Shown here: in pieces, positions 2,039 to 60,808 of the stretch
Position numbering within the stretch: position 1 is the stretch's first letter
How the letters are laid out: every line of letters starts with the position of its first letter
DNA from: an uncultured Chlamydiae bacterium
GTDB taxonomy: Bacteria; Chlamydiota; Chlamydiia; Chlamydiales; Parachlamydiaceae
Assembly: GCA_963754655.1 (NCBI GenBank)
Contig: CAVWGN010000001.1
Location: 2,240,001 to 2,304,000, forward strand
DNA: 64,000 nt
Reading direction: 5' to 3'
The notes under the pieces: model-generated
Seen by the model: only the letters and a program-made list of their open reading frames with translations
What the model was told of the DNA's origin: nothing
The model's database searches: none
Translations under genes and position numbers: made by a program

Positions 2039-2540
2039 CTAGTACTCAACCACATTAGTTTTTGCCTATGGGAATGGTTTTAAATCCCTATGCGTTAAGG
2101 TAAGAGATGGGTGTAGGCTAACGTGCCGCATTCAGTCGCCACGCCGCTTCGCTCTGGGCTCTATGAGAGGGTTCATGGACCCACCGTTCGGTCGCCCTCC
2201 GGGCTCGGTCACGGTGGGCTAGAATCAGTCGTCCTACGGACTCTAGCGCCAATGTAGAAGTCATTGAATGTTAGGTAAGGTTTTTCATAATAATGCTGCT
2301 AGAATGCTAGTCAAGGCGTTTTGATAATGCCGCTAGAGTCCGTAGGACGACTGATTCTAGCCCACCGTGACCGAGCCCGGAGGGCGACCGAACGGTGGGT
2401 CCATGAACCCTCTCATAGAGCCCAGAGCGAAGCGGCGTGGCGACTGAATGCGGCACGTAGCCTACACCCATCTCTTACCTTAACGCATAGGGATTTAAAA
2501 CCCATTCCCATAGGCTAAAACTAATGTGGTTGAGTACTAG
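2039..2540. mobile_element. Giant palindromic non-autonomous element, type A arms, complete termini (copy A1)
   Basis: About 210-bp near-perfect inverted arms starting CTAGTACTCAACCACATTAG and ending CTAATGTGGTTGAGTACTAG; related arms at 21.4-21.9 kb and 57.2-60.7 kb; no credible CDS. Confidence 0.85.
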
Positions 2541-3994
2541 GCTTTCAATTGCTCAGCTTGCCGTGCAAGCTGTTTAATTAACCCTCTAAATATTAAACGA
2601 TGAATAGGATACAGCATGTACCAATAGAGAATCCCCCCAATTCCCAATGGATCAAAAATTGCTCTTTGATGAATCAAAGAACCAAGCGCAGTAGGTTCTA
2701 CTATAAATTCTAACCAGGCGCGTCCGGGAAGTTTCATTTCGGCTCTGAGTAAGAGCCGTTGGTTGGGTTCAAAGGCTTCCACGCGCCAGAAATCTAGAAA
2801 ATCGCCCACTCGTAAATGTTCCTGATCACGGCGTCCGCGTCTTAATCCCACTCCCCCTAACAATAAATCCAGCCAACCCCTGATATGCCAGAGGGAATTC
2901 GCATAATACCAACCTGTACGCCCCCCTATCTTGCTAATGGGAATAAAGGCTTTTTCAGGATCAACCTTGACTGCACATGTATAGCTATCTATAAAACGAT
3001 TACCAAATCTAGCTCCCGCCCAATTTGGCGAGGCTTCGGCAGCAGATAAAGAATCGGACCAATGCGTTTGCGCAAACTCTCGATCTTCATTAGCTAAAGC
3101 AATTTTAATTGCTTCTTTCCCCCCTATAGGATGAATGTTAAAGAGATCCTCCGCACGCCTATCTTGGACAATAGTTGGAAAGCGAAGGCTTTCAATTAAT
3201 TTGCGTCCTATTCTGGCATAAATCGGTGTCACTAATCCTAGCCAAAGACTAGAAAGCCAGGGGGTTAAAACAGGAACGGGAATGAGCCAACGCTTTAAGT
3301 GCCTTTGTCGACTATATTCTAACATAATGTCGCCATAAGACATTTGATCTTGCCCACCAATTTCAAAAATTTGATTCCCTTTTATCTCTATTTCTATCGC
3401 CTTATTTAAATAGGCTAGAATATCTGAAATTGCAATAGGTTGAGCCATTGTCCAAATCCATTTAGGAGTCAACATAACAGGCAGGCGCTCGCAAAGGCTT
3501 CGAATTAATTCAAATGACAAACTTCCTGATCCTATAATAATTGAGGCGCGAAACTCTAATACTTGTACGCCTGATGCTTGCTCTCGCAGATAATGACCAA
3601 CCTCTTGGCGGCTTTTAAGATGCGAGGAGAGGTTGTATCGGCTATCTCCTAATCCACCTAAATAAATGATCCGCTTGACTTTGCATTCAGATGCGGCTTG
3701 AGCAAAATTGAGCGCTGCCAGACGATCTTGTTCAATAAAATCTTTTTCTGATCCCATCGAATGAATCAGATAGAAGGCAACGTCAACCCCTTGCATCGCT
3801 TGTACAATGGATGCTTTGTCTAATACATCGCCTTTAAATATTCGTGTTCGAGGATTAAAGCGCTCATGAAGATAGAGCGGCTCTCGAACAAGACAATGCA
3901 AAATCAAATTTTCTTCTTCTTCCAGAAGATGGAGAAGGCGTCCTCCAATATATCCTGTTGAACCTGTCAATAGAATAGTTTTTTGATTCATCAA
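2537..3994 (-). CDS. SDR-family NAD(P)-binding oxidoreductase with C-terminal DUF2867 domain (YbjT-like)
   Basis: ILLTGSTGYIGGRL, YLIHSM, HLKSRQEVG, C-terminal IGGRTGWYY...LRAEMKLPGRAWLEF. Confidence 0.88.
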   Translation of the reverse strand: MMNQKTILLTGSTGYIGGRLLHLLEEEENLILHCLVREPLYLHERFNPRTRIFKGDVLDKASIVQAMQGVDVAFYLIHSMGSEKDFIEQDRLAALNFAQAASECKVKRIIYLGGLGDSRYNLSSHLKSRQEVGHYLREQASGVQVLEFRASIIIGSGSLSFELIRSLCERLPVMLTPKWIWTMAQPIAISDILAYLNKAIEIEIKGNQIFEIGGQDQMSYGDIMLEYSRQRHLKRWLIPVPVLTPWLSSLWLGLVTPIYARIGRKLIESLRFPTIVQDRRAEDLFNIHPIGGKEAIKIALANEDREFAQTHWSDSLSAAEASPNWAGARFGNRFIDSYTCAVKVDPEKAFIPISKIGGRTGWYYANSLWHIRGWLDLLLGGVGLRRGRRDQEHLRVGDFLDFWRVEAFEPNQRLLLRAEMKLPGRAWLEFIVEPTALGSLIHQRAIFDPLGIGGILYWYMLYPIHRLIFRGLIKQLARQAEQLKA

Positions 3995-4005
3995 TACCTA
4001 ATAAC

Positions 4006-58978: not shown

Positions 58979-59287
58979 ATGAGGCATAAAATGGATTCAA
59001 AAAGCACTCAAAAGCATGAGCGTCCTTCAGATATACGTAAACAAGTGAAGCATTACCAGGAAAGTCGTGATGAATGGAAGCAAAGAAACGCAGAAAAAAG
59101 AACTAAGATTCAAGCTCTAATGACTGATAAGAAACGATTAGGAGAAAGGCTACAAAAGGAACAAGATAATATCTTGGCATTAAACAAACAGATAAAATGC
59201 CTTCAGTCGAGATTAGAAGAGGTGGAAGAGAAAAGTAAAATCAAAGACAAGCAAATTGATGAATTAAAAAAAAAGCTTGTGCAATAA
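58979..59287 (+). CDS. IS OrfA (coiled coil), ends just after an A9G slippery run
   Basis: SRDEWK...coiled coil; A9 at 59266-59274. Confidence 0.8.
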   Translation: MRHKMDSKSTQKHERPSDIRKQVKHYQESRDEWKQRNAEKRTKIQALMTDKKRLGERLQKEQDNILALNKQIKCLQSRLEEVEEKSKIKDKQIDELKKKLVQ

Positions 59288-60675
59288 TTGAGCAAGAAAT
59301 TAGCAACAATCGAAGGGTCGCTCGACATCAATATCCTATATTATTTATATTTTTTGTGATTTCACTTGCATTAGCTGCAATAGCATTTAGAGCGATTCAG
59401 CGAATTTTCATCTCCATGCAGAGTTGTAACATTCCAATATTTAAATATTTCAATTTCCAGCCTTCATGGAAAAGCGTCGAATTGTGGTTTTTACGATATG
59501 GGCTTTACAAGCTTATAAAGGCTAAGGAAAAGGCTTCAGATTGGATTATCCTTGTTGATTTTAAAGTTCAAGCTGGTTACCAAAAGTGCTTAATAGTTCT
59601 TGGAGTTCAATTAAGTACATTACAAAGTAAGTTTGAAAAAAGGGGCAGCTTTGATATTCATCATGAAGATTTCCAACCACTAGCGCTACAACCCATGAAT
59701 TCATCAACTGGTGAAAAAGTTGCGCATGTTTTAGAAGAAATATCGGAAAAAATTGGCCCATTTCTGCAGATAGTGGCAGATCATGGCAGTGATGTAAATA
59801 AAGGTGTAAGACTATATTGCCAAAACCATGAAAAAACAATAAACACCTATGATGTGGTCCATAAACTAGCAATTCTATTAAAAAAGGAACTGGAAAAAGA
59901 TGATACTTGGAAACACATAATTCAATTGATTACAGATACAAAACAAAAGACAAAACAGAGTCCAGAGGCTTTTTTGAGCCCTCCCAAACAAAGAGAAAAA
60001 GCGCGATTCATGAATGCTGATATTTTAATTGATTGGCTACAAGATATTTTAAACCTTCTTCAAATGCAAGAGACGATTCCCCATTTAGATATAAATAGAT
60101 TAAAAGATAAAGCTGGTTGGATAGTCGATTTCGAAGAAGTCATTGAAAAATATGCTCAGATGATAGAAATCATTCGTTTGGCAAGGCATTTAGTAAGAAC
60201 TGAAGGTCTTCATAGACGAAGCTATGCGACTTTTTTTCTTAAAGCAAGACTTCACTTTAGAAGTTTGAAACCAGAAGCACTACATTTGGCAAAAGAGATT
60301 TTTTATTTTTTGAAACAGGAAGGTAGAGTGCTATCCAAGGGACAGGTGTTAGTGGGAAGCAGCGAAGGAATAGAGTCTTTGATAGGAAGACAGAAAATAA
60401 TAGTAGAGAGAACCAAAGCGACATCTAGTATAACTAAAAGTATCCTAAGTCTTGCAGGAATGGTTGGGGAAAATAATTGTGATATCTTACAAGAGGCTTT
60501 AGAAACGGTGTCAGTCGAAATGTTGGAGGAATGGGAAGAAACATGGATTGGCAAAACGGATTTAGCAAAACGAAAAGAAGTTTTGAGTTTGGGCAAAGTA
60601 AATTCAGATGTCATTGAACTTACTATAAAATCAAATAAATTGGAACCAGAACCGTTAGCGATTTTAGCTGTGTAA
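59275..60675 (+). CDS. IS OrfB, DDE transposase catalytic part (-1 frame, open from the A9 run)
   Basis: WIILVD, IVADHGSD..KG, YDVVHK, SSEGIESLIG; frame is stop-free from 59266 to the GTG at 59356. Confidence 0.8.
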   Translation, partial: ACAIIEQEISNNRRVARHQYPILFIFFVISLALAAIAFRAIQRIFISMQSCNIPIFKYFNFQPSWKSVELWFLRYGLYKLIKAKEKASDWIILVDFKVQAGYQKCLIVLGVQLSTLQSKFEKRGSFDIHHEDFQPLALQPMNSSTGEKVAHVLEEISEKIGPFLQIVADHGSDVNKGVRLYCQNHEKTINTYDVVHKLAILLKKELEKDDTWKHIIQLITDTKQKTKQSPEAFLSPPKQREKARFMNADILIDWLQDILNLLQMQETIPHLDINRLKDKAGWIVDFEEVIEKYAQMIEIIRLARHLVRTEGLHRRSYATFFLKARLHFRSLKPEALHLAKEIFYFLKQEGRVLSKGQVLVGSSEGIESLIGRQKIIVERTKATSSITKSILSLAGMVGENNCDILQEALETVSVEMLEEWEETWIGKTDLAKRKEVLSLGKVNSDVIELTIKSNKLEPEPLAILAV

Positions 60676-60808
60676 AAATCGGTTTTTAGCCCTCGTTTTC
60701 TCATCCCAGCCCAGAGCGAAGCGGCGCGGCGACTGAATGCGTGATATGGATGAACGTTGGTGCTCTTGTGGAAGAGATTGGACACAGGGACAAATCATAG
60801 ACTAAGAA

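Follow-up and report, generated by a model that had tools for sequence, protein, structure and literature searches.

Stacked palindromes in a chlamydial genome: hairpin doublets of Y1 genes in MITE-like shells that probably borrow their transposase

Several large intergenic palindromes lie within 64,000 nt of DNA from an uncultured Chlamydiae bacterium of the Parachlamydiaceae (assembly GCA_963754655.1, contig CAVWGN010000001.1, positions 2,240,001 to 2,304,000; hereafter the window), and they raise the question of what such structures are and what moves them. The window corresponds to G000:C1:2240001-2304000, G000 being its genome, a 3.16-Mb assembly of 39% GC. Our analysis points to stacked mobile DNA that is non-coding: hairpin doublets that match sequences flanking subclass-1.2 Y1 genes are enclosed in shells resembling MITEs (miniature transposable elements with inverted repeats), and we consider it probable that the entire stack is moved by its outer shell, for which an IS630-type DDE transposase would be borrowed in trans. 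With less assurance we lean towards a further proposal, namely that one chlamydial shell core changes transposase through an exchange of its terminal repeats, IS630 and IS5/IS427 being the two unrelated DDE families involved, and that it now serves as a vehicle for REP-like (repetitive extragenic palindromic) sequences on which subclass-1.2 HUH enzymes act; Acido-Lenti-1 would be one such substrate. MITEs would here be born through hairpin insertion and arm mirroring, with all stages present in one genome.

Palindromic loci and their layers

An earlier note on this DNA had listed six palindromes of 0.45-0.7 kb, of arm types A and B, three of which (A1, B1 and B3) begin with a common terminus of 15 nt. 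All six loci are present; A1, A2, B1 and B2 are long palindromes, but B3 is a partial one and A3 is none. Arm identity amounts to 99.5% over 209 nt in A1 (2039..2540), 96% over 198 nt in A2 (21443..21896), 93% over 311 nt in B1 (16344..17009) and 97% over 314 nt in B2 (30741..31480), and in B3 (48583..49281) the palindrome covers just 139 nt of each arm. A3 (57211..60742) proved to be an A doublet without shell, truncated on the right and split by two insertion sequences (ISs), each with a direct repeat. The 15-mer lies at 2039, 16344 and 48583, its complement closes A1 and B1, and the GC-rich hairpins listed in the note were recovered at their positions. The shared terminus is real, but it extends over about 45-55 nt, comprising an end (T) and a subterminal module (S), rather than 15; end and module are decayed in A copies. 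Further copies occur throughout the genome: the 15-mer has 111 exact copies in G000, many more than chance would give, and none in 60 relatives (reversed control, 0), and a motif map of the 3.16-Mb genome gave 291 clusters, singletons included. Copies consisting of shell only, of cargo only and of both were all found, which bears out the idea of REP-like doublets within a DDE-type MITE shell. The two layers of that idea are too few; up to five were counted.

B1 is a complete stack, whose left arm (plus strand throughout) runs from the T end through the S module (16381..16397), the conserved subterminal core of the shell family in which inner layers land, to a D shell arm (16399..16447), a B0 shell arm (16448..16481) and the B core (16482..16569), a three-hairpin unit; the B doublet is accompanied by extra central hairpin units. 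A1 is simpler, a complete T shell with CTAG on both sides around an A-class hairpin doublet, and its T end (2039..2065, plus strand) is a 27-nt IS630-like terminal repeat including the target site. A2 is likewise an A doublet; the T variants of its shell are older and decayed. Both B2 and B3 are hybrids. B2 is a B stack without a T end: on the left it ends in the terminal repeat of the resident IS5 (IS427-type), spaced from S as usual, and its right side stops in a remnant of a shell centre. In B3 the left arm reads T-S-D-B0-B, and the right arm consists of a hairpin of a third cargo class, C (49146..49225, plus strand), followed by S and an older T variant.

Long inverted repeats as near-perfect as these could be suspected of being assembly fold-back artefacts, an explanation that we find hardly credible. 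Differences between the arms are patterned, target duplications are present along with IS insertions on one side only, and homologues occur in independent assemblies; moreover, short-read contigs of a public run, possibly from the same sample, hold the same units and IS junctions.

Cargo hairpins and Y1 genes

Nine Y1 matches were found in G000, seven of them full length, and all three cargo-linked types lie outside the window. One is a true IS200/IS605 gene, and the others carry the subclass-1.2 motif when their translations are set against the available part of the published classification (PMC6006769): the tyrosine motif with Q and HH, a C-terminal domain and low copy number, as read from translations with no tree. 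The IS200-type profile NF033573 scored 63.5-73.1 (cut-off 55) in five of five Y1 genes scored, while the RAYT (REP-associated tyrosine transposase) profile NF047646 gave 22-25 bits or no match (cut-off 80). By these sequence features the cargo Y1 genes are assigned to subclass 1.2, on the IS200 side, and not to the class 2 TnpA-REP RAYTs. The earlier note had suggested looking for a RAYT/IS200-like tnpA flanked by the same hairpins; such Y1 genes exist elsewhere in the genome, but they are not canonical RAYTs.

Each cargo class is the flank of its own separate Y1 gene. The flanks of the B gene (C1:395846) have 254 and 325 matches in the genome, B1-B3 among them, and those of the C genes (C1:2542121 and 2544251, whose 3′ flank is the C hairpin) have 77-103, among them the right arm of B3. 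The A core of A1 is the 3′ flank of the Y1 gene at C1:2429452; flanks of the A gene have 96 matches, including A1-A3, a count inflated by an A doublet adjoining the gene, whose own 3′ hairpin is still the A hairpin. Just 1-4 matches were obtained with the flanks of the true IS200/IS605 gene as control. Among relatives, 36 distinct Y1 loci were collected and those of at least 55% identity scored for a matching flank, which was found for B in 8 of 9, C in 3 of 6, A in 2 of 6, G in 1 of 1 and D in 0 of 1; no relative locus had another cargo class as its best match. Within the family, 26 of 72 genomes contain the B core, and in G000 80 full B arm pairs form inverted doublets dispersed extragenically. 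No Y1 relatives were present in the viral contigs searched.

Two further arrangements were observed. At G000:C1:2939075-2939960 (L002) a Y1 gene lies within inverted repeats of about 200 bp, resembling a TIRtron, with an old T end just upstream. At G000:C1:146169-146824 a doublet belonging to a further Y1-linked class lies between two copies of one 146-bp MITE (shell E), and this composite recurs at many loci.

Part of the B core scores as Acido-Lenti-1 (RF01687), a probable RNA of unknown function according to the available part of its description (PMC2864571) and still termed a family of unknown function in the accessible text of a 2026 preprint. B arms of the window score close to the threshold of 37 bits, at 35.1-37.6 (two of seven at 37.6, five at 35.1-36.4). 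Out of 150 scored in each genome, matches numbered 148 in G000, 147 in G020 and 97 in G063; the family is clear in the latter two, and the score reaches 57.9 bits in a relative. The B core also lies beside Y1 genes and is arranged in mirrored doublets, as would be expected of a DNA substrate, and the sequence pattern makes it likely that Acido-Lenti-1 is a single-strand DNA substrate of a Y1 enzyme. Folds of single A and B cores were not better than those of shuffles (z about -1.5). Rfam matches of the miRNA type were long-hairpin noise below threshold and were discarded.

The shell and its ends

The empty shell is a non-coding palindrome of 166 bp with terminal inverted repeats (e.g. C1:1972464-1972629). 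Within A copies it duplicates a CTAG that is present once in uninterrupted A copies, and CTAG precedes 120 of 142 good T ends. The 4-bp CTAG duplication given in the note is inseparable from a duplication of TA within CTAG; an IS630-like shell end makes TA the more likely of the two. IS630 elements prefer CTAG as a target, and copies flanked by CTAG are found in G000, G242 and G478. Enzymes of this family bind ends of about 24 bp and duplicate TA, as reported in the available text on ISY100 (PMC2170065).

Among 139 S-like arms in G000, 121 carry a cap that is one of four T variants, and inward of the 139 follow C (43), a plain centre (41), D (34) or other sequences (21). Outside G000, 6 of 300 genomes from the order have the S module, which also occurs at no fewer than 123 loci in a genome contig collection. 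We compared 83 loci with both S arms, a set in which the right core is fixed by the query and symmetric copies were possibly missed. The left core, identical in 69 of the 83, is different from the right core's mirror image, and the asymmetry is thus kept. By comparison, similarity among 66 distinct outer arms is 85% within one copy but 47% from copy to copy, and the distance from end to core is 38-42 bp in 55 of these 66. Shell ends are of TA-, CTAG- and IS5-like types, with several types per genome. In one further case (L367 in G072) an S shell with another end type sits at a CTAG inside a C-type hairpin downstream of a Y1 gene.

A cross-phylum range of the shell was considered and rejected. 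Proteins at loci labelled Acidobacteriota or Verrucomicrobiae (L158-L234, G478-G481) are often 45-80% identical to those of G000 and some of these loci have the same gene order, and on this evidence they probably belong to chlamydiae; an OmcB profile matched nowhere and is hence uninformative on their phylum. Near shell copies in a Candidatus Protochlamydia genome, proteins are 64-92% identical to their best G000 matches.

The ends link the shells to DDE transposons. Genome G478 contains a two-frame IS630 of 1,227 bp whose end is identical at 27 of 27 positions to shells of that same genome (L174, L182, L200); of five other loci tested against IS-like ends, one reached 26 and four 14-19. The window T end agrees with this IS630 end at 19 of 27 positions. 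Only 9 of the 10,856 CTAG sites in G000 score 18-19 against it, below the peak of the T family. The second family is represented by the resident IS5 (IS427-type), whose end caps S arms at window position 30741, at C1:198035 and on both arms of L260, with identities 21-23 bp long. In addition, a short hairpin like an IS5-type end (2012-2038) adjoins the left CTAG of A1, and elsewhere in the genome IS5 copies often adjoin T ends.

These ends bear on two other explanations. A single HUH/Y1 single-strand system might move the whole hairpin, CTAG being its cleavage tetranucleotide and mimicking a duplication. The palindromy of the whole element, a conserved bulged core like the sites of single-strand enzymes, the five full-length subclass-1.2 Y1 types in the genome and a compatible empty-site pattern fit such a system, but we judge it improbable: the shell ends are DDE transposon ends (27 of 27), one core carries TA-, CTAG- and IS5-type termini, and no Y1 gene in G000 is flanked by T or S. 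Marginally less probable again is the S core as the binding site of a dedicated transposase that cuts at a fixed distance, with the likeness to IS ends secondary. The near-invariant asymmetric core, its spacing of 38-42 bp and the shells in genomes where IS630 was not found agree with it, but among the matches listed of the 123 S loci no gene is enclosed between S arms, and exact identities of 27 and 21-23 bp to IS ends are hard to reach by drift.

Middle layers and insertion into hairpins

Between shell and cargo lie modules that themselves look mobile. B0, a 34-nt module, ends the free B doublets, and among the 18 free B0 doublets (those outside other shells) 8-bp direct repeats, judged by eye, are exact in 6 and have one mismatch in another 6, a DDE signature. 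B0 units are located in shell D or shell F, the latter being the end of an IS701-like remnant, and shell E corresponds to the end of a different IS. The S hairpin is where D units are inserted, with a duplication of about 10 bp, as in B1, and intermediates retain the old shell centre on one side. C doublets are in S in 25 of 25 pairs among those listed.

Two IS families each have 10 of 11 copies, among the matches listed, within these hairpins. One is a 1.4-kb IS (G000:C1:2928641-2930100 and nine more) found in one particular B-core hairpin. The other is the unclassified 1.85-kb IS of A3 (58863..60708, plus strand; 9-bp duplication), which lies in REP-like or S hairpin arms. Its open reading frame (59356-60675) has no Pfam or NCBIfam family and its Atlas neighbours are unnamed, the nearest named one being ISL3/Mutator at 0.80, a lead only. 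This IS starts with the same 10 bases that form the outer end of C doublets; they open 51 of 100 C ends, which makes the IS a candidate mover of the C doublets. The other insertion in A3 is an IS256-family element (57347..58670, plus strand; open reading frame 57422-58624) with an 8-bp duplication.

Arm copying and a model for the stacks

In the 80 B arm pairs, 21 rare substitutions are present in both arms against 0.37 expected, and 46 are present in one arm; 37 of the 80 pairs are identical, compared with 5.5% between copies. Arm-to-arm copying would be the simplest cause of such shared rare mutations. If arms are copied onto each other, a one-sided insertion would become a new two-ended shell.

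We propose the following course of events. The cognate Y1 enzyme would first have spread each doublet class, as the flank identity suggests. Doublets are bounded by several IS-like end types, some with direct repeats, and the units lie nested in one another's hairpins or in the 166-bp shell, within its S hairpin; DDE enzymes may have put them there. Template switching between arms would then mirror each new layer and remove the former centre, so that a longer palindrome whose two ends are alike results. Ends would be swapped, probably via recombination in the shared A/T tract at positions 19-27, which would account for the fixed arm length. Finally, T-capped composites would transpose as units into the TA of CTAG. 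It is the linkage at junctions that points to this last step: by eye, private variants of shell and cargo are linked across unrelated A loci.

Stacks could alternatively be built in place by independent nested insertions and mirroring, the composites never moving as units. Every layer also occurs alone, the hairpins are strong landing sites for the two IS families above, and hybrids such as B2 and B3 exist. The gap between ispE and rplI that holds B3 is a reused site: it contains unrelated palindromes in the congeners G003 (L035) and G001 (L037) and is short in two other genera. Still, we regard construction in place as unlikely, somewhat less so than the two explanations weighed above. Identical shell-cargo junctions with linked private variants occur at unrelated loci with CTAG on both sides, and these include A copies whose S module is decayed and no longer a target. 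Transposition of the composites as units by a borrowed transposase remains our preferred explanation.

Several findings weigh against this preference. The autonomous IS with the shared T end that the earlier note had proposed to look for was not found in G000 or in any collection searched. There was none in 60 relatives or in the genome contig collection, 400 genomes of the phylum gave one match, in a coding region and due to chance, and viral contigs and plasmids yielded nothing useful; nine matches with T-like ends from metagenomes had no enclosed transposase that could be seen. The resident IS630 agrees with T at only 13 of 27 positions, within the range of chance, though T ends look young, and IS630 (PF13358) was not found in the shell-bearing genomes G001, G020, G257, G271, G480 and G482, most of them fragmented or incomplete. 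No autonomous IS5 stands beside the IS5-capped shell in G479, autonomous partners were found for neither B0 nor D, and none is known for the module that separates S from the A core. The model does not explain why the asymmetric S core is conserved. A BLAST match to the core was obtained for only 2 of the 6 relatives in the A clade and 3 of the 6 in the C clade. Lastly, the comparison of empty orthologous sites proposed in the note gave no nucleotide-level empty site for the full composite, congeners being too distant at 65-82% identity.

As for the metagenome matches (L278-L286), T-like ends lie in unrelated contigs, two as short MITE-like units and five in front of repeats that by eye resemble cyanobacterial ones; judged from these sequences, the T end type is wider than chlamydiae.

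Other features of the window and genome

A gene at 32076-34163 encodes a U-box/RING and ankyrin protein with an asparagine-rich repeat, which is effector-like. Two DUF4116 repeat genes with 75-bp units lie at 41611-44271, members of a family hugely expanded in G000. The 35-kb contig G000:C2 has genes and a repeat locus in common with the start of C1 and is likely chromosomal rather than a plasmid.

Comparison with known systems

No description of these chlamydial elements or of end swapping was found in the full texts searched, which lack most subscription papers and did not include ISfinder. If true, our proposal supplies a testable path for the origin of bacterial MITEs and for their survival beyond that of their transposases, the end being replaced and the core kept; the origin and persistence of ERIC-type (enterobacterial repetitive intergenic consensus) MITEs are left open in the available text of reviews. 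The elements join two known kinds, the IS630/ERIC-type MITE and REPIN-like doublets.

The shell resembles ERIC/MITEPlu5 and RUP (repeat unit of pneumococcus) elements, which are fully palindromic, gene-less, TA-flanked units of 120-170 bp with IS630-like ends and up to hundreds of copies in the parts available of their descriptions (PMC6267812, PMC2229807); the resemblance of ERIC-type MITEs to IS630 ends is noted there as well (PMC6267812). The likeness to ERIC is one of architecture only. In contrast to ERIC and RUP, the shell core of the window carries both IS630 ends (exact in one genome) and IS5/IS427-type ends, and it is loaded with REP-like doublets. With the IS630 family itself the elements share terminal repeats of about 24-27 bp and a likely TA duplication, as far as the accessible account goes (PMC2170065), but they are non-autonomous and the cognate for T is missing.

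The cargo recalls the REPIN/RAYT and REPtron/TIRtron systems, for which the available texts describe single-copy Y1 genes with hairpins that recur genome-wide as inverted doublets, several classes of gene and repeat per genome, and hairpins targeted by other ISs (PMC3733652, PMC6006769). The genes here differ from REPIN/RAYT in being of IS200 type and below the RAYT cut-off, the unit of about 100 nt has three hairpins, and most copies are wrapped in DDE-type ends. A tetranucleotide foot without target duplication was not encountered, nor was one of the GTAG/CGTC kind established; B0 closes the free B doublets, and 12 of 18 show 8-bp direct repeats. The genes match TnpA-Y1 subclass 1.2, with which they share a tyrosine motif with downstream Q and HH (YH in one of five), a conserved C-terminal tail and low copy number (PMC6006769, in part). 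Cognate repeats are now assigned to this subclass, which in the accessible text of the same paper had been described without any.

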